Source: a virus
Lineage: Duplodnaviria > Heunggongvirae > Uroviricota > Caudoviricetes
Length of the DNA: 43,859 nt
Reading direction: 5' to 3' (one strand)
Virus record (IMG/VR): IMGVR_UViG_2908567220_000006
Coordinates: 1-43,859 of that record
Shown: positions 3,039 through 33,827 of the stretch, piece after piece
Numbering within the stretch: the first letter of the stretch is position 1
How the letters are laid out: each line of letters begins with the position of its first letter
The notes under the pieces: model-generated
What the model was told of the DNA's origin: nothing
Database searches by the model: none
What the model saw: only the letters and a program-made list of their open reading frames with translations
Made by a program: the position numbers and the translations under genes

Positions 3039-3938
3039 TTACTTCATTCTGAAGACGCGTTGTGTCGTTGTTGTTTTGAATTTTTCGAATAACTCAGGGT
3101 GTACTGACTGGAATAGCTTCTGGTCGAATCTGTTGCTGATCTGAGATTTCCATGTGCAGAGCGGCTTTCCGTCCAGGGTCAGGACTGAGTGCTCTTGCAT
3201 GTACATCTTCAGCTTCTCTTCTGATATAGCTATTTCTTCTTCCAGTGATTTTCTGCGTGACTTCATGTCTCGTAGATCGTTGAATAGTGCGAGTGCCTTT
3301 CCGTCAGCCTCGATACTTGTCCCGGCATCTTTCTCAAACATCAGCGATATATCGCTTACGCTGGTAGCTTCCGGCGGGTTAAGATTTTTCACTCGGTCCC
3401 AGAAAGCGATTTCTTTTTCTAAGATTGCCTGGATAGTTTCTTCATCACGCTCAACCCGATAGATTCGGAAGTCGTCGCCACCGATAAGCACACCGAAAAC
3501 GCATACCTGTTTGTTTGTAACCATCAACCCGTGCATGGCCTGGGCCGTGTAATGCACAGGAATTGCATCTGTCTGGATTTCTCCCCATTCTTTGGCTTTG
3601 AACGGACTAACTGTTTTGATCTCAATGTTCTCGCCTGACGCTGCTTCTGCATCGATCTCAGCTGCAATAAAATCGTAATCACGGTGGATATAGCGGTTTC
3701 CGCGATGAACGATTTCCATCCCTGTTTCCTCAGAAAGCAGGTCTATTACGTATGGCTCCATACGCTGGCCACGCGTGAAAACTTTCTGCTTGCTTGGGTC
3801 TACTGGTTTGACACGTGGCTGTACCTTATCCAGATAAACCTCAAGCGGTGTGCGCCATGGGCTAATTCCAAGAATCCCTGCAACATCGCTTCCTCCGATG
3901 TATTTTGTTCTATCCATGATTCCAGCGTTCCGCATCAT
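3039..3938 (-). CDS. YqaJ-type viral recombinase exonuclease
   Basis: 299 aa; N-terminal motif KYIGGSDVAGILGISPWRTPLEVY typical of YqaJ/lambda-Exo-like nucleases; paired with RecT. Confidence 0.8.
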   Translation of the reverse strand: MMRNAGIMDRTKYIGGSDVAGILGISPWRTPLEVYLDKVQPRVKPVDPSKQKVFTRGQRMEPYVIDLLSEETGMEIVHRGNRYIHRDYDFIAAEIDAEAASGENIEIKTVSPFKAKEWGEIQTDAIPVHYTAQAMHGLMVTNKQVCVFGVLIGGDDFRIYRVERDEETIQAILEKEIAFWDRVKNLNPPEATSVSDISLMFEKDAGTSIEADGKALALFNDLRDMKSRRKSLEEEIAISEEKLKMYMQEHSVLTLDGKPLCTWKSQISNRFDQKLFQSVHPELFEKFKTTTTQRVFRMK

Positions 3939-4234
3939 GCCGCGTCCCTCTGTCCATCAAGCTGATCAGCCAGATCCCAGCGGGCGATAATTGCCATTGC
4001 CTCGCGCCGGTAGGAATCCATCAGTTCTTCGAACTCTGGACTGTCTTTAGCGGCCTCCAGTACTTCCTGGCGAACGCCTTTACCTGTTACAGCGTCGAAA
4101 GTTGAGGCTAGTTGATGAAGCCGGATGCTCTCGATCAGTTCAACTTGTCGGTCATATAGCTGTTCTGACAGGCGGTAGTCCTTGTCGAATGCCAGCATGA
4201 TTTTTTGAAGATTTTTCTGCTGATTAACGTTCAT
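3935..4234 (-). CDS. hypothetical early protein
   Basis: Start taken at MNVNQQ, which has a GGGAGGG Shine-Dalgarno 5 nt upstream; overlaps the exonuclease start. Confidence 0.5.
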   Translation of the reverse strand: MNVNQQKNLQKIMLAFDKDYRLSEQLYDRQVELIESIRLHQLASTFDAVTGKGVRQEVLEAAKDSPEFEELMDSYRREAMAIIARWDLADQLDGQRDAA

Positions 4235-4236
4235 TA

Positions 4237-4389
4237 TCAGCCCTCCCATATCTCGTTATCGTTGGCTACATCGCGAGCTTCTTTGCTGACGAAAGCCCAC
4301 TTAATGCCTTCCTGTAAGGTGCGGAACTTCCAGCTCATGAATCCGCATGCAGTAACGCAGCACCAACCGTTGATGATTTTCCACTGCAT
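4237..4389 (-). CDS. small Cys/Trp-rich hypothetical protein (50 aa)
   Basis: Own translation: MQWKIINGWCCVTACGFMSWKF...; first gene downstream of the putative leftward early promoter, the position occupied by kil/cIII-like genes in lambdoid phages. Below the ORF-track size cutoff. Confidence 0.3.
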   Translation of the reverse strand: MQWKIINGWCCVTACGFMSWKFRTLQEGIKWAFVSKEARDVANDNEIWEG

Positions 4390-4408
4390 AATTTGTTACC
4401 TCGGCTTG

Positions 4409-5879: not shown

Positions 5880-6695
5880 ATGAGCAGACATGCAACAGAT
5901 TGGGCCTGGGAGACAGATCCAGGTAGCTCATCATTAAAGCTCATACTGCTCTCGATGGCTGACAGAGCCGATGAATATAACCTCTGCTACCCCAGCATAG
6001 AACGCCTCGTTAAAGACACTTGCCTGAATAAAAAAACCGTGCAGGCCGGGCTTATATCGCTCATGAAAATGGGGCTTATTTCAGATACCGGAGATAGAAA
6101 GGGAGCGACAAAAAGAGTGCGGGTTTTCTCTCTTAATATAACCAAAAACGGGAACATTAAAGGCAACCGGGAAGGGGGTAATGAACCCGAAAACGGTAAT
6201 GTTACCGAAAACGGGAATATACCCAAAAACGGGATGTTGAATGATCCCAAAAACGGGATGTTGAATGATCCCAAAAACGGGATCCAGAACCAGTCATATA
6301 ACCAGTCATTTAACCAAGAGAGGGAGAGCAGGACAAAAAGCGGGGATTCTGTGCCTCATGACCCCGGCGCAAACAACGCCGTGATGAATAACTTTGTTCC
6401 TCCTGGTTGGCCAGGGCAATTAGGCAAATTTGTCATGCATGAACAATGGCAACCATCAGATGACTTTCTTCGGAAAAGCTCATTGCAGGGGATCTACCTG
6501 GACAGTCTGCCAACGGCACAGGAACTTGCAGAGTTCAGAATTTACTGGATGGCTGAGGGTAAGGCATACCATCAGGCACAGTGGGAGCAGAAGCTGGCAA
6601 GGAGGCTGCAGATTAGCAGACAGAAGCAATCAACATTACCTGATAACAACGTTCCGCACTGGAACAGCCCTGAAGCATGGGAGGATTTCTTGTGA
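5880..6695 (+). CDS. replication initiator (O-like; N-terminal winged-HTH, C-terminal DnaT-like domain)
   Basis: 271 aa; Asn/Gly-rich repetitive linker encoded by iteron-like DNA repeats; directly upstream of the P-like helicase loader. Confidence 0.7.
   Translation: MSRHATDWAWETDPGSSSLKLILLSMADRADEYNLCYPSIERLVKDTCLNKKTVQAGLISLMKMGLISDTGDRKGATKRVRVFSLNITKNGNIKGNREGGNEPENGNVTENGNIPKNGMLNDPKNGMLNDPKNGIQNQSYNQSFNQERESRTKSGDSVPHDPGANNAVMNNFVPPGWPGQLGKFVMHEQWQPSDDFLRKSSLQGIYLDSLPTAQELAEFRIYWMAEGKAYHQAQWEQKLARRLQISRQKQSTLPDNNVPHWNSPEAWEDFL
6140..6285. repeat. iteron array (putative replication origin) inside initiator gene
   Basis: Six copies of CC(C/G)AAAACGGGAA-like units spaced 18-24 bp, including a perfect tandem 24-bp duplication cccaaaaacgggatgttgaatgat at 6222-6269. 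Confidence 0.55.
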
Positions 6696-14927: not shown

Positions 14928-15004
14928 TGGCGTGGCATGCAGGATTCGAACCTGCGACCAACCGCTTAGAAGGCGGTTGCTCTGTCCAGCTGAGCTAATG
15001 CCAC
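14928..15004 (-). tRNA. tRNA-Arg (anticodon UCU)
   Basis: Manual fold of the reverse complement: 7-bp acceptor stem GTGGCAT/ATGCCAC, D-arm GCTCAGCTGGACAGAGC, anticodon stem ACCGC/GCGGT with loop CTTCTAA, T-arm GCAGGTTCGAATCCTGC, discriminator G plus CCA. Acceptor stem differs from my recollection of host argU. Confidence 0.9.
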
Positions 15005-23609: not shown

Positions 23610-24073
23610 TGATCGATGTTCAAATTATTCCCGCTACCGAAGAGCATCTTCAGATGATTTTGCCGGATGTTCGTCAGGCTGATATTGACGAACTGTATGC
23701 GGTATCGCTGATGACTACCGAAGATGCGCTGCGCGTTGGTCTTCGCACTGCGACTATGGCCTGGTCAGGGTTCGCGAACGGAGAACTGGTAACCATGTTT
23801 GGTGTATCTCCGGCGTCAATGATCGGTGGCAATGGTACGCCCTGGCTGGTAGGAACCAGCCGTATTGAAAAATATCAGAAGACATTTCTGCGCCACTGCC
23901 GCCCTGTATTGCAGCAGATGCTGGCAGTTTATCCGCGCCTGGAAAACTACGTCGACGAGCGAAACCATGTTGCCAAAGCATGGCTGCACTGGCTTGGATT
24001 CAGGCTTGAAGAAGCCGCGCCTTATGGTGCTCTTGGTCTTAATTTCCACAGATTTCACATGGAGAGAAAATAA
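23609..24073 (+). CDS. internal virion protein (gp13-like position)
   Basis: 154 aa, coupled to neighbours. Confidence 0.4.
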   Translation: MIDVQIIPATEEHLQMILPDVRQADIDELYAVSLMTTEDALRVGLRTATMAWSGFANGELVTMFGVSPASMIGGNGTPWLVGTSRIEKYQKTFLRHCRPVLQQMLAVYPRLENYVDERNHVAKAWLHWLGFRLEEAAPYGALGLNFHRFHMERK

Positions 24074-24648
24074 TGTGCGATCCGGTTATTGCTGGTGGCG
24101 CAATGCTCGCCATGAGTGGCATTCAGGCATACACCCAGTACCAACAGGGAAAGTATGCCTCGAAGGTTGCAGAAGCGAACGCAGATATAGCCACAGCTCA
24201 GGCAAATGATGCAATAAACAGAGGTAACGCTGAAGCTGAGCAACGACGCAGAGAGACCCGACAGCGGCTTGGTACACAGGCGGCGACAATGGGGGCTACC
24301 GGCGCTGATTTATCTACAGGTAACGCGCTGGATATATTTGGCGACACTGCCCAGTTTGGCGCTCTTGATTCTCTGACGACGGTGAATAACGCGCAACGCG
24401 AGGCTTACGGTTATCAGGTTCAGGCTGCCAACTATAAAGCAGAAGCCAGTTCAGCCCGTAAACAGGGGAATGTGGGAGCAGCAACAACATTGCTCACTGC
24501 GCCTCTGAAGGCATACGGTGCGTACCAGATGTTTGGTGGGACGTGGAGTCCGTTCTCTAAAGGAAGTACATCTAGTGGTGGGACGCCAATGTTATCTAAC
24601 TCAGGTTTTATGAATTCTGACTCCCGATTCAAAATAGGAGGTTACTGA
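24073..24648 (+). CDS. internal virion protein (gp14-like position)
   Basis: 191 aa; Ala/Gln-rich N-terminus, Gly/Ser-rich C-terminus. Confidence 0.4.
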   Translation: MCDPVIAGGAMLAMSGIQAYTQYQQGKYASKVAEANADIATAQANDAINRGNAEAEQRRRETRQRLGTQAATMGATGADLSTGNALDIFGDTAQFGALDSLTTVNNAQREAYGYQVQAANYKAEASSARKQGNVGAATTLLTAPLKAYGAYQMFGGTWSPFSKGSTSSGGTPMLSNSGFMNSDSRFKIGGY

Positions 24649-27395
24649 TGCCTGTTGTTCCTACTACATCCGGACGCCAGGTGCAAAGTCGTGGTGTGCA
24701 AACCGGTGGTTTTCAGACCTTCGATGTTCCTCAAGCAGGTCAGGTGCTGGCGAATGTCGCAGATCAGTATGCGGTGGCATATGGTGAAGCTAGGCAGAAA
24801 GCGAATGTTGCTATGGCCCAGGAGGCGTTACTGCAATTTAACCAATTTGCAGATGACCAGATTAACAACCCTGAAAATGGGCTGATTTCTAAACAGGGTA
24901 AAAACGCTCTTGGTCAGAGTGACGCTGTTATGAAAAATATGCAGGAAAGGGCTCAGGCATTATTAGGCTCAATTCCTGAAAGTGAGGAAAGGAATAAATT
25001 ATCCTTTCAACTCCAGCAGTCTATGCAGTCTTATTACAATCAGGCACGTCGATATGAAGTTGGGCAGTTTCAGCAATTCCAAGATCAAACGTATTTGTCA
25101 GGAAATGCATTGGCTGTCACTCAGTCTGCGGGGCTATATAGCGATAACCAAGCATTTGTCGATTTAGCCAAGCAGCGATTTGAATCTATTGATCAATACG
25201 CTGATGCGCATGGGCTTCCTGATGAGTGGCGTGTTCAGCAGAAAACTCAGCTCAAGGAACAAATGGGGCAGCAAGCATGGATAGGAAATATCGCTCAAAA
25301 ATACAACGAGTTTCTTCAGGTTAATGGAGAGCCAGGGGATCTTGATGGTGTGAGTCGTGCAATATCACATGGTAATTCATTGGATGCTCGTGGTTTACGT
25401 AATAATAACCCTGGTAATATTGAAGCGAGCAAATCTAACCCGTGGGAAGGTCAGATCGGTAGCGATGGACGTTTTGCAACGTTTGCTACCCCTGAGCATG
25501 GAATCCGCGCGTTGGGTAAAAATATGTTGTCTTACCAGCGTCAAGGCTATGACACCGTTAGCGAGATTGTTAATCGCTATGCTCCGGCTAGTGATGGTAA
25601 TAATACTGATGCTTATATTAGGGCATTGTGTAGTGAGCTTGGTGTTGGGGAGAATGATCAGCTTGATATCTCTAACCCAAAGACACTAGCTGCTTTATGT
25701 GCTGGGATTATTAAACACGAAAATGGCAGTATGCCTTATAGCACCGAACAGCTTGAAACTGGTATCTCGGCAGCCCTTGGTCTAACTAACCTTGATTCAC
25801 CTAAGCGTTATACGGGCAATGCGGCATTTGACGCTATGAGCCCTCAAATGCAAATACAGGCATTGAGGCAGGCTAATGAGCTGAGAAATCAGTACCGCCA
25901 GCAGTATGCGGACCAGCTTAGCACCGTAGTTAAAGATGCATATTCAGCCCTTGATGAAGGATTGAAACCTGAGAAGTTACCTTCTGAGGACGATTTTATC
26001 CGGGCCAATGGTCCGCGCATTGGCGCTATGAAGTGGAAGGATATGCAGGCGCAGATACAATATGGAGGTGTCATTGGTGCCGCTAAAGACCTCACTCCAG
26101 AAGGACGACAAGACATTCTTGAACGTTTACGTCCACAGGATCCAAATGCTCCTGGATTTGCAGCTAACCAGCAACGCTGGGAGAAAATGCAGGCCAAATT
26201 TAAAGAGATGGATAGGGAGTGGGAGATTCAGCAGGGAAGAAACAGGTTCGTGTCTTCAATGCAAAATAACTTCCCGCTGGACCCTAACGACAAAAACAAT
26301 CAGGCAGCGGTAGACCGTTATTTCGCGCAGGATATCGCGCCTTCGTTTTCCATATCTGATCCGCAGAGCATCAATACACTGGTCACCGTCACAACTAAAA
26401 GCGGCATGATACCAACTCAGGTTAAAACAATGCTTAACAGTGGAGCAACATCAAGAGATCCTGCGCTGGTTGTCCCGATGGCAAAATTCTACGGTCAGTT
26501 ATTCGATAATAATCCGGCGGCAGCGGCAACACTTGATAAAAGTACGATGGCATTTTACGGCAAGGTTTACGATTATTCCCGCGCTGGCGTGCCGGAGGAT
26601 AAGGCTGTTGATATGGCTTACAGCCAGGTGTTCCAACAGGATGACCGAATGAAACAGATGCTTTCCACTGCCATGCGAGACAAAAAATATGTCGCGGCGA
26701 GGGCAACTGCTGCACAAAATAACGCCAGCAGTCTGACTTCCTTTGGTTCGTGGTCTCCGGATATTACCGATCCAGGAAAATCAAATGCGGCCTATCAGCG
26801 AGATTACCAGACAATTTACGATGCTAACTTTGTACAGACAGGTGGCGATGCAGAACAGGCTGAGAAAATGACCAATGCCATGATCAGAACCACCTGGGGA
26901 GTTTCTACAGTTAATGGCAAAGCAGAGGTTATGAAGTATGCACCTGAGGCATTGTACGGAGTAAATAATGGTGCTGGTAACTGGATACAGGGGCAGTGGG
27001 AGCAGGAAAAACGCGAGCTTAAATCAAAATCCTTTGGCGGTCCTCGCAGTGATACGGACTTAATACTTGTTTCTGATGGCCTTACGGCAAGGGATAGGAG
27101 TTATGCTGTTATGGTTTTACAGCCTGACGCAAACGGAGCGATAGAACCGAGAAATTATATTGGAGAAAATGGTCTCCCTGTTCGTTTCAAGCCGGATCAG
27201 CTGACATCTCCAATGTACAGGCAAACCATTCAGTTCCAGCAACAGCGTGTTGATGAGGCTAGAGTGCGGAGAGAAGGCAATCCGCTGCCGCAGTTCAGCA
27301 ATAAAGATGGATATACTCCTCCAGATCTGACCAAACCATTCGGTTATGGTTCAGCCAATTACCTTCCGAGCAATATATACGCAGGGGGCAAATAA
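24648..27395 (+). CDS. large internal virion/ejection protein with putative muralytic segment
   Basis: 915 aa; contains LRNNNPGNIEAS...W.GQIGSDGRFATFATPEHGIRA, a motif I associate with virion-associated peptidoglycan hydrolase domains. Confidence 0.5.
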   Translation: MPVVPTTSGRQVQSRGVQTGGFQTFDVPQAGQVLANVADQYAVAYGEARQKANVAMAQEALLQFNQFADDQINNPENGLISKQGKNALGQSDAVMKNMQERAQALLGSIPESEERNKLSFQLQQSMQSYYNQARRYEVGQFQQFQDQTYLSGNALAVTQSAGLYSDNQAFVDLAKQRFESIDQYADAHGLPDEWRVQQKTQLKEQMGQQAWIGNIAQKYNEFLQVNGEPGDLDGVSRAISHGNSLDARGLRNNNPGNIEASKSNPWEGQIGSDGRFATFATPEHGIRALGKNMLSYQRQGYDTVSEIVNRYAPASDGNNTDAYIRALCSELGVGENDQLDISNPKTLAALCAGIIKHENGSMPYSTEQLETGISAALGLTNLDSPKRYTGNAAFDAMSPQMQIQALRQANELRNQYRQQYADQLSTVVKDAYSALDEGLKPEKLPSEDDFIRANGPRIGAMKWKDMQAQIQYGGVIGAAKDLTPEGRQDILERLRPQDPNAPGFAANQQRWEKMQAKFKEMDREWEIQQGRNRFVSSMQNNFPLDPNDKNNQAAVDRYFAQDIAPSFSISDPQSINTLVTVTTKSGMIPTQVKTMLNSGATSRDPALVVPMAKFYGQLFDNNPAAAATLDKSTMAFYGKVYDYSRAGVPEDKAVDMAYSQVFQQDDRMKQMLSTAMRDKKYVAARATAAQNNASSLTSFGSWSPDITDPGKSNAAYQRDYQTIYDANFVQTGGDAEQAEKMTNAMIRTTWGVSTVNGKAEVMKYAPEALYGVNNGAGNWIQGQWEQEKRELKSKSFGGPRSDTDLILVSDGLTARDRSYAVMVLQPDANGAIEPRNYIGENGLPVRFKPDQLTSPMYRQTIQFQQQRVDEARVRREGNPLPQFSNKDGYTPPDLTKPFGYGSANYLPSNIYAGGK

Positions 27396-30300
27396 TGCCG
27401 ATATATGAACAGGATCCTAAAGAGTTGCTTGGCGAGGATATTCAGCAAATAGCAGCACCTGATGACAGTAATTTCTATATGGAAACACCTTCTTTGCTTT
27501 CTGCTGTGAACCCATTTACCAGTGATCAACGCGTTCAAAGGTCTAGACAAGCAGCATTTCGTATAGATAACACGCTGGGTAGCTTTATTGCCAGTGCTCC
27601 TTTCAGTCAGTTTGACAGGGTTGAAGGATATAACCCATTTGATAACGATGCAGCAGATATTAAAGGCTATGAAGATTTTGCAGATTCGTTTATCAACTCC
27701 GGTTCGCATGAAGAAACAATGGCAATTAAACATCGAATCGATAAGCAAAGAACAGATAGAGAATATCTATCTGAAATGGGTGGTGCTGGTACTATTTCAA
27801 GCTTAGCAATGGGAATGATAGACCCGGTTAATGTGGCTGCAATGTTCATCCCTGTAGGGGCGGTAGCGCGTGGAGGAAGTATTGCTGAGACGGCAGGGCG
27901 TTTTGCCCTGGCGAATGCTGCTGGTGGGGGAGTATCAGAAGCCGCATTACAGGCCACTCAGGAAGCTCGCTCACCGATGGAGAGCGTATCGAACGTTGTT
28001 GTTGATGCTCTCGTTGGTGGGATCCTTGGTGCTGGTGCACAGCTACTTGCTGGACCTAGCGCGCGCGAGGCAGTGGTTAACTCAGTAGGTAATCATTTGC
28101 GAGGTATGGATTCTCCTCAAAGCATTGGTGCAGCTCAGGTTTTCAATACCACACTCGATCAGGAACAGCTCGCTGGACTTGGACTTGCTAACAAAACGTT
28201 GAGTGTCACTCCTGCTGGCCGCTTGGCGCAATCACCATCTCTTGTCTCCCGTCAGATTAACCAGCAGCTTGCCGAAAATAACTATTTCTTCGCCAAAAAT
28301 GATGAGGGGTTGGCTACGTTTACGGCAGTCGAGACTAAGATTAAGCAATACGACGCCATGCTTTATAAGCAGATGGAAGCTACTCGTGATGCTTACCAGC
28401 AGTACAGCAAATCTGTCAGCGCCCGCGGCGTGAAGAGGATGAACTTTATTGATTTCAATGAAGCTGTTGGCATGGCTATGCGCCGTGGTGATCAGAGTGA
28501 TATTCCTGAGGTTTCACAAGCAGCCGCCAGAATCCGCCCCATTTTTGAGACCACAAAAGCCCGTATGCAGGAATTGGGGATCCTTCCTGAGGATATCGAT
28601 GTCGTGACGGCGAAGAGTTATCTTCCCCGCATTTATAAGTTCGATAAGATACTTTCCGACCGCACTGAATTCAGAGGGCGAATTGCCAACTGGATACAAG
28701 TGATTAGTGCCAAAGGTGCTGACAAAGCAGGTCAGCGAATTGAAAAGATAAATTCATTGCTAAAAACTGCAGAGGAATCAGCACCGCGCGCTGATGCTCT
28801 CGCTAGTGAAATCGCTGAAGCGGAGAAATGGTCTGGTAAAAAAATTCTACTCATGGAAGAACTGGATAAACGAAATAAGCTTATATCTCAGGAGACTGAC
28901 ACACAGGCGCGTCTTACAAGAATAGAAAAAGAGTTGGCCGAGACTTCATCAGAAAAACTTCAGGCAAGAATGATGAAAGAAAGCTCTGACCTTAAAACAC
29001 GCCTTGATGATATAGCGCAGGCAAAGAGTGAGCTTCCTGTCTATCAGCGCCATATGGAGTTGCTGGATAATCCACGGAAATATCGTTCTGAGCTTCGCCG
29101 ACTGCAAAAACGGGCAAATTCAACCACAAGGCTGAATGCAAGCCGCGAGCGAGCACTGAAGCAGATGGAGCCTCTATCCCGAGAGGAAGCAGAGGACGCT
29201 GCTGACGAGATCGTGAATAAAATAATAGGCGCACCTTCCGGGCTTGTACCAGCCGATATTATCCCAGAGAGACTCGTTGGTCGGGCTGGTTTCACTAAAA
29301 GCAGAACGCTGCTTATTCCTGATGAGCGTATAGAAGATTTTCTTGAATCAGATGTTAACTACATCATGGAAAGTTATCTCCGGCAGGTGGCACCAGAAAT
29401 TGAGCTGACTGCGCAGTTTGGCCGTAAAGATATGGGGGAGCAAATCCGTCAGGTTAGTGAGGAATATACCCGGCTAATAAAAGAGGCTAAAACACCTAAA
29501 CGACGTGCAGTTCTTGAGAAGCAACGGGAGGCTGATATTAGGGATATTACGGCTATGCGTGATCGACTGCTTGGTACTTACGGTGCACCTCAAGATCCAC
29601 GCAGTTTCTTTGTTCGTGCCGGGCGAGTTGCTAGGAATATTAACTTCCTCCGTTTGCTTGGTGGAATGACTGTCTCCGCTGCAACTGATCTGATGCGACC
29701 GATGATGCAGCATGGCCTGAGAAAATCTCTCGGACCAATGGTAAGCATGCTTAAAAATATGGACTCAGTGAAAATTGCAACCAGGGATTTGCGAGAAATG
29801 GCAGTTGGGCTTGATTATGTCCTGTCTACGCGTACAAAGGCTATAGCGGATCTTACTGACCCCTATAGCCGGAGAAGCGCCGCTGAGCGAGGTCTGAACT
29901 GGATGACGCAGAAATTCGGTAACTGGACGCTGATGAATCAGTGGAACAGCGCACTTAAATCATGGTCTGGGATGATAGTGCAGTCGAGGATACTTGACGC
30001 GGCTCGCCAAGTTTCTGCTGGTGGCACGCTCTCCAAAAGTGAAATGCGGAAGATGGCACAGGTCGGCATCAATGAAGATGTTCTGCGCCGAATCGGGGAG
30101 CAATTCGGGAAGCACGGAGAGGATATGGACGGGCTGTTAACCGGGCATAGTCATCTGTGGGATGACCGTTTCGCTAGAGAGATTTTCCAGTCTGCAGTGC
30201 TGAAAGATGTAGACTCAGTGATTGTAACGCCTGGCGTAGGTGATACACCGCTGTTTTTTAGTAAAGAAGGCTGGAAGATGATCACGCAGTTCAAAACGTT

Positions 30301-30784
30301 TATCTTCGCACAGCATAACAGGGTGCTGGTATCTGGTATCCAGCAGGGCGATGCTGCATTCTATCTTGGTGCGCTTGGCACGATTGCGCTTGGCTCAATG
30401 GTCTATATGATGAAACAGAAGTTAAGCGGTCGCGATATCGACTACAGCTGGAATAACCTTGTGAAAGAGGGGATCGACCGGGGCGGAATGCTTGGCTGGC
30501 TCTCTGAGCCGCTGAATACCGTTGAGAACATAAGCGGCGGTAGGTTTGGTCTTGGCGCGATGTTTGGTGCGCCTCCGGTATCAAGGTTTCAGAGTCGTAA
30601 TGCTATTGGTGCTTTACTTGGTCCTACCTTTGATCTTGGCGGTGATGCCGCGACGGTTGCAAATGGTGTACTTAACGGAGAATTTGACAGCCAGCAAACC
30701 CACGCTGTCCGTAAAATGCTACCTTTTCAGAATCTGTGGGCGATATCACCATTACTAAATAAAGTTGAAGAGCAGATGAAATAG
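27395..30784 (+). CDS. very large internal virion/ejection protein (T7 gp16 position)
   Basis: 1129 aa with long coiled-coil-like stretches; last core gene before the accessory island. Confidence 0.5.
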   Translation: MPIYEQDPKELLGEDIQQIAAPDDSNFYMETPSLLSAVNPFTSDQRVQRSRQAAFRIDNTLGSFIASAPFSQFDRVEGYNPFDNDAADIKGYEDFADSFINSGSHEETMAIKHRIDKQRTDREYLSEMGGAGTISSLAMGMIDPVNVAAMFIPVGAVARGGSIAETAGRFALANAAGGGVSEAALQATQEARSPMESVSNVVVDALVGGILGAGAQLLAGPSAREAVVNSVGNHLRGMDSPQSIGAAQVFNTTLDQEQLAGLGLANKTLSVTPAGRLAQSPSLVSRQINQQLAENNYFFAKNDEGLATFTAVETKIKQYDAMLYKQMEATRDAYQQYSKSVSARGVKRMNFIDFNEAVGMAMRRGDQSDIPEVSQAAARIRPIFETTKARMQELGILPEDIDVVTAKSYLPRIYKFDKILSDRTEFRGRIANWIQVISAKGADKAGQRIEKINSLLKTAEESAPRADALASEIAEAEKWSGKKILLMEELDKRNKLISQETDTQARLTRIEKELAETSSEKLQARMMKESSDLKTRLDDIAQAKSELPVYQRHMELLDNPRKYRSELRRLQKRANSTTRLNASRERALKQMEPLSREEAEDAADEIVNKIIGAPSGLVPADIIPERLVGRAGFTKSRTLLIPDERIEDFLESDVNYIMESYLRQVAPEIELTAQFGRKDMGEQIRQVSEEYTRLIKEAKTPKRRAVLEKQREADIRDITAMRDRLLGTYGAPQDPRSFFVRAGRVARNINFLRLLGGMTVSAATDLMRPMMQHGLRKSLGPMVSMLKNMDSVKIATRDLREMAVGLDYVLSTRTKAIADLTDPYSRRSAAERGLNWMTQKFGNWTLMNQWNSALKSWSGMIVQSRILDAARQVSAGGTLSKSEMRKMAQVGINEDVLRRIGEQFGKHGEDMDGLLTGHSHLWDDRFAREIFQSAVLKDVDSVIVTPGVGDTPLFFSKEGWKMITQFKTFIFAQHNRVLVSGIQQGDAAFYLGALGTIALGSMVYMMKQKLSGRDIDYSWNNLVKEGIDRGGMLGWLSEPLNTVENISGGRFGLGAMFGAPPVSRFQSRNAIGALLGPTFDLGGDAATVANGVLNGEFDSQQTHAVRKMLPFQNLWAISPLLNKVEEQMK

Positions 30785-30785
30785 G

Positions 30786-31637
30786 ATGAAAAAAATAAAT
30801 TTGTTTTTTGGCATAGTGCTTTCAATAGTCTCTGTAAATCCTACAGCTGCCAGTTCATTGCAATGCAATAAGGATAACTTTGATGCATGCAAAACGTGCG
30901 AACAATTATCAAAGGCTATCGACTTAAAAGAACCTAATCGTGGCGATTACTATAGAGGGGCTTTATGGAATGGGCTTTACGCCTCTTATGTAATTAATTG
31001 CCCTGTGGTTGCAGAGAAGTTACTGAGCCATGGTGCTATACCATCATATGGCGGATATATGGGGTCTATGGGGGCGGTTCTGACAGGAAAATGGCCTCAT
31101 AACAATGAATCAATAAATCTTTCATGGGCAGATTTGCTTATAAAACATGGATTTGATGTTAATAGGCATACGGGGAATTATAAATCAGCTACTGAAGTAT
31201 GGGCTATAGATAAAAAACAGATTGAATATAAGTCAGTTTTTGACAAGTTAATTCAATCCAGCGAAGTAAAACCACTCGATCCTTCAAGAAATTTAGAATG
31301 GTGTGCGTCTGAAGGGTATCGCTCAGTTGTCGTTTATTCCCTTAACTCATGTATAGAAAATGCTATAAAACGTTTGGATGACGGTGTTTCTTCAGCGTCT
31401 GATATTTCATCAGCAGCCGTAAATTCCTGTACTAGCGATGTAGAAAATTTCAATAAGCATTTGGCATGCAAAGCAGCTGTTAAAGAAAACTCTGATAAAG
31501 AGAGAAGCAACGTTTACCAGTTATTAACCAGTGATAGTCAAATGAATAAAAATGTTATTGATATGCTGAAGGAAAGAAATATTGAAACGGTTCTTGAATT
31601 TAGAGCTGAAAATCGATCAGCGAAAACTGCACAGTGA
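30786..31637 (+). CDS. secreted Cys-rich protein with ankyrin-repeat-like segments (moron)
   Basis: N-terminal signal peptide MKKINLFFGIVLSIVSVNPTAA; AT-rich codon usage unlike flanking genes; segments ALWNGLYASYVINCPVVAEKLLSHGA and WADLLIKHGFDVN resemble ankyrin repeats. Confidence 0.55.
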   Translation: MKKINLFFGIVLSIVSVNPTAASSLQCNKDNFDACKTCEQLSKAIDLKEPNRGDYYRGALWNGLYASYVINCPVVAEKLLSHGAIPSYGGYMGSMGAVLTGKWPHNNESINLSWADLLIKHGFDVNRHTGNYKSATEVWAIDKKQIEYKSVFDKLIQSSEVKPLDPSRNLEWCASEGYRSVVVYSLNSCIENAIKRLDDGVSSASDISSAAVNSCTSDVENFNKHLACKAAVKENSDKERSNVYQLLTSDSQMNKNVIDMLKERNIETVLEFRAENRSAKTAQ

Positions 31638-31643
31638 TCAAAC

Positions 31644-31668
31644 AGGCCGCTTTCGCGGCCTTGTTTTT
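31644..31668. terminator. intrinsic terminator shared by convergent genes
   Basis: GGCCGC-TTTC-GCGGCC hairpin followed by TTGTTTTT on the plus strand. Confidence 0.6.
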
Positions 31669-31828
31669 AACGAATGCCACCGCCGCCCGGACGGGAATCC
31701 GCAGAACGCCCACCGCAGCGGGAGCCGTCAGCGGCAGTATCGCTGTCGTGCTGACAACGACCGGCAAAGGCCTGAGTTGAAGCTACCAGAGACAACAAAA
31801 CGAACAGTGCAGCAAATGCTTTTTTCAT
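31667..31828 (-). CDS. small secreted Gly-rich hypothetical protein
   Basis: Start at MKKAFAALFVLLSLVASTQAFA (signal-peptide-like); weak SD. Confidence 0.35.
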   Translation of the reverse strand: MKKAFAALFVLLSLVASTQAFAGRCQHDSDTAADGSRCGGRSADSRPGGGGIR

Positions 31829-31911
31829 TGTGAAAAATTTCCATCTATAAGCCACCTCAATGTGGCGTCAATGAGTGTAGCACTGACTTTTGTTTCGTCC
31901 ATAAAAAACTA

Positions 31912-32424
31912 CTATGCAGGCTTTTTGGATTTGTACGAATAATCCCACGGATAAACATTTCTACTAAGTGGAGCTGTATTCGTTCGTTCATGAAATAATT
32001 TTGTGAAATTCAATACGGAATCCATCCAAACTTTTGCGTTAGCTTTGGTGTGTGCGGGCGGGTCCCAATAAGCTAGTAAGGCTGCATCTCTTATTTCATT
32101 GACTGCATATATGAGATATGCGTTACTGGTTGGTTTTGGCCTGTAATTTCCTTGTTCATCAATCAATCCATATGACCACTCATCCCAACACTGTTCAGTA
32201 CATGAGTATGAATATGATGCATATTCACCAATATTGACATGAACCTTTCTGAGATGGAAGCCTAATACTTCCTCTGGTCTTTCAAAAAGAGTATCTTTTC
32301 CCAGATCAGGATGATGACCATGACGCCAGTGTTGTTTAAAAGCATCTTTTAGCGAAATCAGAAAGTCATCAGTTTTAAACTCACCAGTAGGTATAACCTT
32401 CCCGCTATACTCACTCAAAAACAT
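31912..32424 (-). CDS. hypothetical protein B (170 aa), downstream gene of a two-gene accessory operon
   Basis: Start overlaps the upstream gene by 14 nt; AT-rich; motif region HWRHGHHPDLGKDTLF...GFHLRKVHVNI; no confident family assignment. Confidence 0.55.
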   Translation of the reverse strand: MFLSEYSGKVIPTGEFKTDDFLISLKDAFKQHWRHGHHPDLGKDTLFERPEEVLGFHLRKVHVNIGEYASYSYSCTEQCWDEWSYGLIDEQGNYRPKPTSNAYLIYAVNEIRDAALLAYWDPPAHTKANAKVWMDSVLNFTKLFHERTNTAPLSRNVYPWDYSYKSKKPA

Positions 32425-32737
32425 CGAATTCCTCTTCCTTCATATGCGTTTCTAATGAGTTAAGCTGGCGGAAAGATATCTCTTTTGATTCTGCAGATGA
32501 GAGTTTTTTTATCCGCTTTATATTCTTTGTGATAGGAATAGACATTGTATGCACATCAGCGGATGCTCTTGGCTTTGTGCTGATAAAAATATGGCGCAAT
32601 GCCGCATTTTCACTATTGAACGAGCCAATAGCTGATTTACGTGCTACAACCTTACCAGTAAAAATACGACTCTTGCTACGCTTTGCATGAGTTCCGCTTC
32701 TTACCGGACCTCTCATCACGAATCCAAGTTTTGTCAT
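32411..32737 (-). CDS. hypothetical protein A (108 aa), upstream gene of a two-gene accessory operon
   Basis: GGAG SD 7 nt before the ATG; basic N-terminus; candidate promoter (-35 TTGCAG, -10 TACTAT) abutting the palindrome at 32780-32794. Confidence 0.5.
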   Translation of the reverse strand: MTKLGFVMRGPVRSGTHAKRSKSRIFTGKVVARKSAIGSFNSENAALRHIFISTKPRASADVHTMSIPITKNIKRIKKLSSAESKEISFRQLNSLETHMKEEEFDVFE

Positions 32738-32867: not shown

Positions 32868-33560
32868 TCAGAAGAACCCTGCCTTGTCGTTGATGTACTC
32901 CGCGTGGGTCTGGATATCACGCAGGCATTTGCTCACACCGACGATGTAGCAGAACATGGTGGTCAGTTCCGCCGCCGCGCCCGATACATCGTGCCCGTCT
33001 TCCTGTAACTGGTTCAGCAGATTCATCAGCAGTGAGTTCTCCGTCAGGCCGAGAACACCAGACGGCGAGTGAATCAGGCTACGGTAGCCGGGCTTCAGCG
33101 GGGCGCTGTAGGTTTTGTTCTCTATCTTCATCGCCTGCATTACTGCTGACGCCGTGGCGTTGGCTACCTGGTCGGCAACCATCTTTATGCGTTCTTCCTG
33201 CGGGAGCGAGTTTTTAATGTAACTTCCGGTGCGGCGGATCTGAGGAAGAACCTCACCTGTAACCCATTCAAGAAATCTGAATGCTCTCGTTCCCTCAGTC
33301 ATTGCCTCTTTGCAACGCAGAATAAGGATGTAGAGACCTGATTCTGAAACGATGGATAGTTCTTGTATTCCACCAGGGGTCTGTATTGAATACAGCCCCT
33401 TTTTGTTCCAGCCTTTTTTATCAAGTTTTCTCGCTTGTGTAACATCAATATTCAAAGCATTGCACACATCTTTGGTGACAAACCAAGGTTCTCCGTCAAT
33501 CATGAACATACGGATCTGGCAGGATGACTCAAAGGAAAAGATGGAAGGTTTGGTATTCAT
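32868..33560 (-). CDS. antirepressor (Bro-N domain with C-terminal Ant/KilA-C-like domain)
   Basis: Start at MNTKPSIFSFESSCQIRMFMIDGEPWFVTKDVC (Bro-N signature) with AAAGGTGA SD. Confidence 0.7.
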   Translation of the reverse strand: MNTKPSIFSFESSCQIRMFMIDGEPWFVTKDVCNALNIDVTQARKLDKKGWNKKGLYSIQTPGGIQELSIVSESGLYILILRCKEAMTEGTRAFRFLEWVTGEVLPQIRRTGSYIKNSLPQEERIKMVADQVANATASAVMQAMKIENKTYSAPLKPGYRSLIHSPSGVLGLTENSLLMNLLNQLQEDGHDVSGAAAELTTMFCYIVGVSKCLRDIQTHAEYINDKAGFF

Positions 33561-33827
33561 GGCGATCACCTTTGTAGTTAGGTTAATCACCACCGCTGAG
33601 ACCAATCAGATGGTGGTGAACTGTGCAGAGTTGGTCTTACCGGCTACAAAGGAACCCGGCGCACCTTTCGGTGCCCCCACACAGCCCACCATAGAATAGG
33701 TGCGCTTTACACATAAAAAAACCGCTTATGCGGCATATGTGCCTCTGTAGTAATCCGGGAGACCAATCCCGGCACTGGATTTTGCCAGTGCCCGATTACT
33801 ATGGCACAAGAGGAGTGCGATGTAAAT

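Follow-up and report, generated by a model that had tools for sequence, protein, structure and literature searches.

A cysteine-rich ankyrin-like protein with predicted export, encoded behind the ejectosome genes of a temperate podophage, as a candidate superinfection-exclusion factor

INTRODUCTION

Why should a temperate podophage carry a gene for a protein with an apparent export signal directly behind the genes of its ejection apparatus? In T7-type ejectosomes the gp14-, gp15- and gp16-like proteins form a channel across the periplasm. The question is raised by an open reading frame (ORF) at 30786–31637, termed here the target gene, within a stretch of phage DNA of 43,859 nt (IMG/VR record IMGVR_UViG_2908567220_000006), the whole of which is called the window. 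As far as can be judged from its sequence, the best-supported reading of the product (the target) is an exported, disulfide-stabilised periplasmic protein that binds another protein. It may act in superinfection exclusion, where it would bind the incoming gp15-like muralytic protein or another part of the ejectosome and so abort entry of the DNA. We put the probability of this at about 0.35.

RESULTS

Position and boundaries of the target gene

The target ORF begins with ATG at 30786 and ends with TGA at 31635–31637 on the + strand, and encodes 283 aa. From the ORF and a profile match, positions 30786–31637 (stop codon included) are assigned as the coding sequence of a two-domain protein of PHROG 6118 with predicted export. 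The match to PHROG 6118 (E = 1.1e-200) aligns residues 1–283 with profile positions 1–283 of 283, and the annotated function of that family is 'unknown'.

The ATG is located 1 nt past the TAG of the 1129-aa gp16-like gene (27395–30784). At its other end the target gene shares an intrinsic terminator (31644–31668) with a convergent 62-aa gene. This is a GC-rich hairpin with its stem at 31644–31661 followed by a T-run, and its predicted RNA fold of −16.1 kcal/mol (z-score −4.4) was equalled by 0 of 200 shuffled sequences. The same hairpin is found 3′ of the Klebsiella homologue. The target gene has a GC content of 0.370, and 0.289 at third codon positions (GC3), compared with 0.467–0.546 and 0.417–0.612 respectively for the virion genes. 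An earlier note on this DNA had described an AT-rich gene with its own terminator directly behind the last ejection-protein gene, and all of this is borne out.

A predicted signal peptide and eight invariant cysteines

The chain starts with MKK, followed by a hydrophobic core of 14 residues (INLFFGIVLSIVSV) and then NPTAAS. This is the pattern of a substrate for Sec and signal peptidase (SPase) I, having a charged n-region, an h-region and small residues at −3 and −1. Hydrophobicity is maximal at residues 6–15, and neither a second hydrophobic segment nor a later transmembrane segment is present. A Sec signal peptide is thus predicted over residues 1–22 or 1–23 (30786–30854, + strand), with cleavage after TAA or AAS; the assignment was made by rule from the n/h/c pattern rather than by SignalP. 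An equivalent though unconserved signal-type N-terminus is present in all 14 full-length homologues. It is also seen in 18 proteins comprising the N-terminal domain alone and in 12 of 13 comprising the C-terminal domain alone, the exception appearing to be truncated at its N-terminus.

Processing as a lipoprotein by SPase II was considered and rejected, the lipobox [LVI][ASTVI][GAS]C being absent from the target and its homologues. The first cysteine of the homologues is preceded by SLQ, PSQ, AGQ, SVE, LAK or YSK, placing Q, E or K at −1. In the target the predicted mature chain begins shortly before Cys27.

Cysteine makes up 8 of the 283 residues (2.8%), compared with 0–1.4% in other proteins of the phage and 0–1% in its virion proteins. 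Four are located in the N-terminal domain (C27, C35, C38 and C72) and four in the C-terminal domain (C173, C189, C215 and C228). All eight are invariant in the 14 homologues, at identities down to 39%, where the invariant columns number just 55 of 283 overall. It is very probable on this basis that the product is exported and disulfide bonded, and the eight cysteines would fit four periplasmic disulfides. Binding of haem c was rejected, the CXXCH motif being absent. The signal-type N-terminus and the many cysteines had both been read from the sequence in the earlier note, and they stand.

A degenerate ankyrin-like domain

An exhaustive hidden Markov model search of 1.84 billion representative proteins divides the target into two domains. 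The N-terminal domain (N-domain; residues 24–165, 30855–31280, + strand) comprises a cysteine cap, C27-x7-C35-x2-C38 ... C72, and then about three degenerate ankyrin-like repeats within residues ∼54–158 (30945–31259). Its motifs are C-x7-C-x2-C, GDYYRGAxWNGLY, NC, LL..GA.P..GG and KWPHNN.IN..WA.LL. In an AlphaFold2 model of the whole target (mean predicted local distance difference test score (pLDDT) 76) the protein is all-helical. Residues 1–23 are disordered (pLDDT < 50), the N-domain is modelled with moderate confidence and the C-terminal bundle (residues 170–282) with high confidence.

A Pfam scan of the target returned no family at E <= 1, and no Ank family was found in any of the 14 homologues. 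In hhalign comparisons the target family profiles aligned with a designed ankyrin repeat protein (DARPin) at probabilities of 75% (E = 2.5e-5) and 86% (E = 5.2e-6) over 56–86 columns, spanning 2.5 repeats that include the C-cap. Searched against the PDB, the N-domain profile matched ankyrin-1/2 and ankyrin-like designs with E-values of 3e-4 to 3e-3 (1.6e-3 to 2.6e-3 for ankyrin-1/2), and nearly all of the 26 matches were of ankyrin type. The full-length profile, searched against 1.8 billion sequences, matched proteins with multiple ankyrin repeats (Ank by Pfam) with E-values between 5.5e-9 and 8e-4. A Foldseek search of the target against the PDB and BFVD gave nothing below E = 0.2.

By these profile matches the ankyrin-likeness of the N-domain is real but degenerate, and the ankyrin-like segments proposed in the earlier note are retained in that form. 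The target is, on the same comparisons, a divergent offshoot of the ankyrin repeat superfamily. It differs from that superfamily in falling below the Pfam thresholds, in having lost the TPLH motif, in a 6-residue insertion (WPHNNE) in repeat 2, and in an N-terminal cap with four invariant cysteines that would be cross-linked.

The N-domain also occurs alone, in signal-peptide proteins of ∼160 aa from Burkholderiaceae, Alphaproteobacteria and Bacteriovoracia metagenome-assembled genomes (MAGs). The stand-alone genes that were recovered are chromosomal, in environmental Proteobacteria. At three alphaproteobacterial loci (L013, L015 and L102) the N-domain gene (6001–6490) is placed 5–15 nt behind a gene for a small cytochrome c; it diverges from an EF-hand/ferric-reductase (NOX5-like) gene and is followed by an aldo-keto reductase gene. 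The Burkholderiaceae genes come after a gene for a pyridoxal phosphate-dependent decarboxylase. A scan of genome contigs gave one locus, in a Bacteriovoracia MAG, with uninformative neighbours. These contexts are not decisive on the role of the domain in the phage.

A helical C-terminal domain with prophage relatives

The C-terminal domain (C-domain; residues 166–283, 31281–31634, + strand) is defined by the AlphaFold2 model and by its stand-alone occurrences. It is predicted to be helical with pLDDT values of 88–95 over most of its length, falling at the C-terminal end. Its central motif is C189-x8-LDDGVSSASDIS-x8-C215, with C173 and C228 outside it, and the consensus of the domain is W..C...i..LDDG[IV]SPASDIA.AV...C..E ... 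vL..R. No relative was found in Pfam, against which ten stand-alone proteins were scanned, or by sequence in the PDB.

The domain is also found alone in proteins of 110–200 aa with predicted signal peptides. In all four of the contexts recovered the gene is located in phage or prophage DNA. Two of these are unrelated prophage fragments, in each of which a Cro-like gene diverges. In one (L098) the C-domain gene has a 4-nt overlap with the stop of a CI-like repressor gene of Peptidase_S24 type, and in the other (L105) it lies 64 nt behind a repressor gene with HTH_3 and Peptidase_S24 domains. The remaining two occupy moron-like positions: one (L104) beside integrase, lysis and tail genes at a prophage end, the other (L107) alone and in the opposite orientation between primase and terminase genes. 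Prophages typically express genes in repressor-adjacent or moron positions, and such genes typically serve exclusion or conversion, as in the rex- and sie-type loci of lambdoid phages. A scan of viral contigs seeded with the stand-alone C-domain gave one locus. In viral contigs both domains were seen only fused, in the target lineage, apart from L107 and a short contig (L076) where a stand-alone domain matched weakly. A tblastn search of the stand-alone C-domain proteins against isolated phages gave no match.

Expression with the ejectosome genes

No sigma-70-like site scoring >= 9/12 is present upstream of the target gene. A relaxed scan produced candidates at 8/12 only, no commoner than background, and a promoter belonging to the target gene was rejected on this result; such a consensus scan could miss a non-canonical promoter. 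In E. coli and Klebsiella the start and stop codons meet in TAGGATG or TAGAATG, and the target start is, to judge from these junctions, translationally coupled to the gp16 stop. Short spacers with Shine–Dalgarno motifs precede the Morganella and Providencia-like homologues, and in the Serratia spacer the match, AGGT/GGA, is weaker. Because of the 1-nt spacing, and because no convincing promoter or terminator lies between the gp16-like gene and the target gene, we infer that the latter is co-transcribed with the virion genes. The sequence thus supports expression that is late and lytic, together with the ejectosome, as the only mode that can be read from it.

Distribution and evolution

In 5.8 billion proteins the relatives of the target, full-length or fragmentary, form just 22 clusters, whose sources are limited to E. 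coli, Klebsiella, Serratia, Morganella and Providencia. Among 5426 complete E. coli genomes, 106 carry the gene. The prophage carriers include extraintestinal pathogenic E. coli (ExPEC), avian pathogenic E. coli (APEC) and ST131-type genomes, for example IHE3034 and APEC O18. At 31 of 32 loci a gp16-like ORF of 937–1157 aa (∼1130 aa in 30) ends 1–56 nt before the homologue; at the sole exception (L045) no gp16-like ORF was detected upstream. The target thus appears restricted to a single temperate podophage lineage whose ejectosome is of T7 type. An NCBIfam scan gave nothing usable, and PADLOC-DB gave 0 families at E <= 1. On these searches the target belongs to no family of known function. 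The RefSeq protein WP_000723561 gave no match in a search of the literature, and papers that mention the phages TL-2011b or EC.W1-9 leave the gene untreated, judged from their titles and abstracts.

The target diverges at a rate similar to that of gp15. Compared with the window, the Klebsiella phage is 86% identical in the target, 83% in gp15 and 93% in gp16; the values are 58%, 58% and 79% for Serratia, and 43%, 44% and 57% for Morganella. The ratio of nonsynonymous to synonymous substitution rates (dN/dS) of the target gene is 0.13–0.20, about 0.15, which shows purifying selection. A chance ORF is rejected by this ratio and by conservation down to 39% identity.

The earlier note had taken codon usage as a sign of horizontal acquisition. 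The homologue holds the same position at all 32 loci, across five genera, and in every host it is AT-rich relative to the gp16-like gene. The AT-richness is therefore ancient and persistent, and no sign of recent acquisition. A recent horizontal origin is rejected by the fixed synteny, the co-divergence with gp15 and the lasting AT-richness across five genera, and that part of the earlier note, if it meant recent acquisition, is not supported. The gene is, from these comparisons, an old and selected resident of the phage lineage rather than a recent import. Between E. coli and Klebsiella (L038) the synonymous divergence (dS) is 0.43 for the target gene, 1.08 for gp16 and 1.53 for gp15. A later swap of the cassette could account for the low value of the target, as could constraint on its synonymous sites, which are AT-rich. 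A specific co-evolution of target and ejectosome alleles within E. coli was rejected, the target and gp15 being nearly invariant there and gp14 mosaic independently of them.

An accessory slot

The place that the target gene occupies is, by comparison of genomes, an accessory slot. Among 120 E. coli genomes that share the gp16 3′ end, around 14 lack the target gene and have a different cassette in the slot, while their gp16-like gene is 99% identical and their virion module intact. The alternative cassette fills the interval from the gp16 stop to the shared terminator (L095, positions 3501–4403, in E. coli NZ_OZ039848; also L096). It comprises a minus-strand gene for a 146-aa signal-peptide protein with 4 cysteines (phrog_8772) and a plus-strand gene for a 149-aa protein (phrog_9944), both families being annotated as of unknown function. 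The related phage TL-2011b has other cargo in the slot. In distant Vibrio relatives the slot is empty, and the gp16-like gene runs straight into a tail protein gene. The target gene shows the traits of a moron, with its own terminator, a GC content of 0.37 against about 0.48, and polymorphism for presence and absence.

The phage and the neighbouring genes

The window contains a temperate podophage, and the target gene is 100% identical in Escherichia phage EC.W1-9. The late operon runs through terminase, portal, capsid and tail protein genes to the T7-type ejectosome series, which opens with a gene for a 154-aa internal virion protein. A tRNA-Arg(TCT) gene (14928–15004, − strand) is located between the terminase and portal genes, antisense to the late operon. 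A 191-aa internal virion protein (24073–24648, + strand) belongs to the T7 gp14 family (Pfam PF24072 T7_gp14, E = 4.4e-8, above the cutoff), and this match defines the module as a predicted T7-type ejectosome. Its gene is mosaic among E. coli prophages that are otherwise ∼99% identical. The amino acid identity of the product to that of the window is either ∼100% or just 65–71%, independently of the gp15, gp16 and target alleles.

The gp15-like ejection protein follows (24648–27395, + strand; 915 aa; phrog_1044, phrog_873 and phrog_7182). It has a predicted muralytic domain of endolysin/transglycosylase-like type at residues ∼245–400 (25380–25847), with PDB matches to 7q47 'Endolysin' (E = 2.8e-15) and 9vvp_L (E = 3.9e-35). 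The 1129-aa gp16-like internal virion/ejection protein (+ strand) is identified by phrog_342 'internal virion protein' and phrog_16310. The lysis cassette is at about 37.4–39.2 kb of the window, not near the target gene.

Between the slot and the tailspike gene are genes for a small signal-peptide 'moron' protein, a YafO-like toxin pair and a Bro-N antirepressor. The first is the 62-aa gene (31667–31855, − strand) that converges on the terminator of the target gene. It matches phrog_14503 'membrane associated protein' in the moron category, and its product resembles a signal peptide at the N-terminus and has a tail rich in Gly and Arg. The 3′ 59 nt of this gene are found in ∼480 E. coli genomes, a number well above that of genomes with the prophage. 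A 170-aa protein (31912–32424, − strand) is YafO-like (Pfam E = 7e-4, below the cutoff), and a gene of the same length in the slot of strain 2/0 is called a YafO family toxin by RefSeq. It is overlapped by 14 nt by a 108-aa gene (32411–32737, − strand). Both have GC contents of 0.39–0.40, and they form a candidate toxin–antitoxin pair. The Bro-N/Ant-type antirepressor gene (32868–33605, − strand) is likewise placed in the stretch from the ejectosome operon to the tailspike gene, and has equivalents in the Serratia relative and in TL-2011b.

DISCUSSION

Function of the target

The proposed mechanism is as follows. The target would be transcribed together with the ejectosome genes for the gp14, gp15 and gp16 homologues, exported by Sec and given its disulfides in the manner of DsbA, and would reside in the periplasm, outside the virion. 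Its N-domain would serve as an ankyrin-like protein-binding scaffold, fused to the helical 'LDDGxSPASDIA' domain. As a stoichiometric binder in the periplasm of an infected or lysogenic cell, it could intercept a protein delivered by an incoming phage, either the muralytic gp15-like protein or another component of the ejectosome. DNA entry by a superinfecting phage of the same kind would then abort, giving superinfection exclusion. Exclusion is favoured because of the linkage to ejectosome genes, the prophage-accessory pedigree of the C-domain and the replaceable slot. The earlier note had offered exclusion or lysogenic conversion, and this is kept as the leading idea, consistent with the predicted export, the accessory slot and the repressor-adjacent C-domain genes; the promoter active in the lysogen that would go with it was not found.

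Several observations weigh against exclusion. We infer both the binding partner and the exclusion phenotype. Classic exclusion matters most in the lysogen, and the target gene has no discernible promoter of its own. The stand-alone N-domain genes adjoin cytochrome c or decarboxylase genes, not genes for peptidoglycan hydrolases. No co-variation of target alleles with those of gp14, gp15 or gp16 was seen in E. coli, and the co-divergence across genera can be explained by vertical inheritance alone. The target has no sequence or fold similarity to T4 Spackle or another known superinfection-exclusion (Sie) protein, and no PADLOC match.

Other functions must be considered. Lysogenic conversion, in which the target would alter the bacterial envelope or act on an animal host in the manner of ANKp to the benefit of the lysogen, appears unlikely. 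It would suit the presence of the prophage in ExPEC, APEC and ST131-type genomes, the polymorphic AT-rich slot with its own terminator, and the finding that phage ankyrin proteins with signal peptides lower phagocytosis and the inflammatory response (bioRxiv 10.1101/608950). Yet a Sec signal leads only to the E. coli periplasm with no evident route past the outer membrane, no own promoter was found upstream, and the target is kept across hosts of very different ecology, always behind gp16. An expression that can be read only as late and coupled to translation of gp16 would suit a periplasmic helper late in the lytic cycle. Such a protein might protect the wall of its own cell from the muralytic proteins of the phage itself until lysis, delay lysis on sensing superinfection as does T4 RI, or modulate a periplasmic enzyme. 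The gp15 protein has a muralytic domain, and there is a precedent for ankyrin-based protection from a cell's own peptidoglycan hydrolases in Bd3460 (PMC4686830). However, packaging of the ejectosome proteins takes place in the cytoplasm, and they are not expected to reach the periplasm of the producing cell, the target gene is remote from the lysis cassette, and some prophages replace it yet keep the virion module intact. We consider the helper no more and no less unlikely than conversion.

A periplasmic redox protein or partner of a haem protein, in which the CxxC and two further cysteines would form a thiol–disulfide or metal site, is improbable. C35-x-x-C38 is conserved without exception, in full-length proteins as in stand-alone N-domain proteins, and is located at the start of a helix (residues 38–44), and in three alphaproteobacterial genomes the N-domain gene follows closely (5–15 nt) on a small cytochrome c gene and adjoins a NOX5-like reductase gene. 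Periplasmic AnkB reportedly supports the catalase KatB in Pseudomonas. Against this, the modelled fold is all-helical and not thioredoxin-like, the CXXCH haem motif is absent, and the cytochrome c linkage is confined to a single syntenic lineage and differs from the Burkholderiaceae context; a redox function would also leave unexplained the fusion to a prophage-specific domain and the fixed position after gp16. Most improbable of all is a fourth ejected protein, with the hydrophobic N-terminus acting as a membrane-insertion segment. The target gene is the last of the ejectosome operon, with strict synteny and a divergence rate like that of gp15, but the N-terminus is of classic n/h/c form and is shared by stand-alone cellular homologues, and the eight invariant cysteines stand in a module that is otherwise almost free of them. 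The gene is moreover replaced by an unrelated cassette in prophages that are otherwise 99% identical, and both TL-2011b and the Vibrio relatives lack it. This supports the view that the target is not a typical virion protein.

Implications

In kind the target is familiar, a prophage accessory protein with predicted export that probably serves exclusion. No earlier description exists of its architecture, of the two domain families or of the fixed coupling to a T7-type ejectosome operon. To our knowledge no phage-encoded periplasmic factor aimed at a T7-type ejectosome has been described, and the searches made here brought nothing to the contrary. More speculatively, and with rather less confidence than we place in exclusion itself, the target may be the founder of a new class of periplasmic anti-ejectosome immunity factors in phages with T7-type ejection. 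These would be built from two undescribed exported domains: a cysteine-capped mini-ankyrin, widespread in environmental proteobacteria, and an 'LDDGxSPASDIA' domain that would mark a wider and so far unrecognised family of periplasmic exclusion proteins of prophages, in part co-expressed with CI.

If the target blocks the ejectosome, it would be a natural inhibitor and a probe of ejectosome assembly. Exclusion would also make it a marker from which cross-immunity could be predicted between prophages in E. coli and Klebsiella lineages of clinical importance, a point relevant to phage therapy, the purpose for which EC.W1-9 was isolated, and would provide a functional label for two unannotated exported domains of prophages and environmental bacteria. 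Were it instead a conversion factor, it would be an exported ankyrin-like protein carried by the prophages of ExPEC and APEC.

Comparison with known systems

The PHROG 6118 entry has no functional annotation, and the domain split and the analysis of context are added here. The ANKp proteins of the ankyphages, phages of sponge symbionts, are ankyrin proteins with signal peptides (bioRxiv 10.1101/608950). Like them, the target is a phage-borne auxiliary protein of ankyrin type with an N-terminal signal peptide and no transmembrane domain, and ANKp too is read as secreted from the infected cell and not part of the virion. ANKp was found by its Pfam Ank signatures and acts on eukaryotic immune cells, whereas the target fails Pfam Ank, is cysteine-rich, includes a fused domain that is prophage-specific and is linked to an enterobacterial ejectosome operon.

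In Bdellovibrio the periplasmic ankyrin protein Bd3460 provides self-protection by inhibiting endopeptidases that act on peptidoglycan (PMC4686830). It is an ankyrin-based, stoichiometric inhibitor of cell-wall hydrolases in the periplasm that guards its own cell during invasion, and the target is likened to it by its ankyrin-like domain. The published description gives Bd3460 an ankyrin-based fold (PMC4686830), while the repeats of the target are too degenerate for Pfam. The closest functional parallel to the proposed exclusion is T4 Spackle (gp61.3), a periplasmic superinfection-exclusion protein that inhibits the gp5 tail lysozyme (PMC7677548). Like Spackle, the target is phage-encoded and is predicted to have a signal peptide, to be helical and to be located in the periplasm. 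Spackle binds and inhibits the muralytic domain of an incoming penetration device, and the phage of the target has a muralytic ejection protein of its own.

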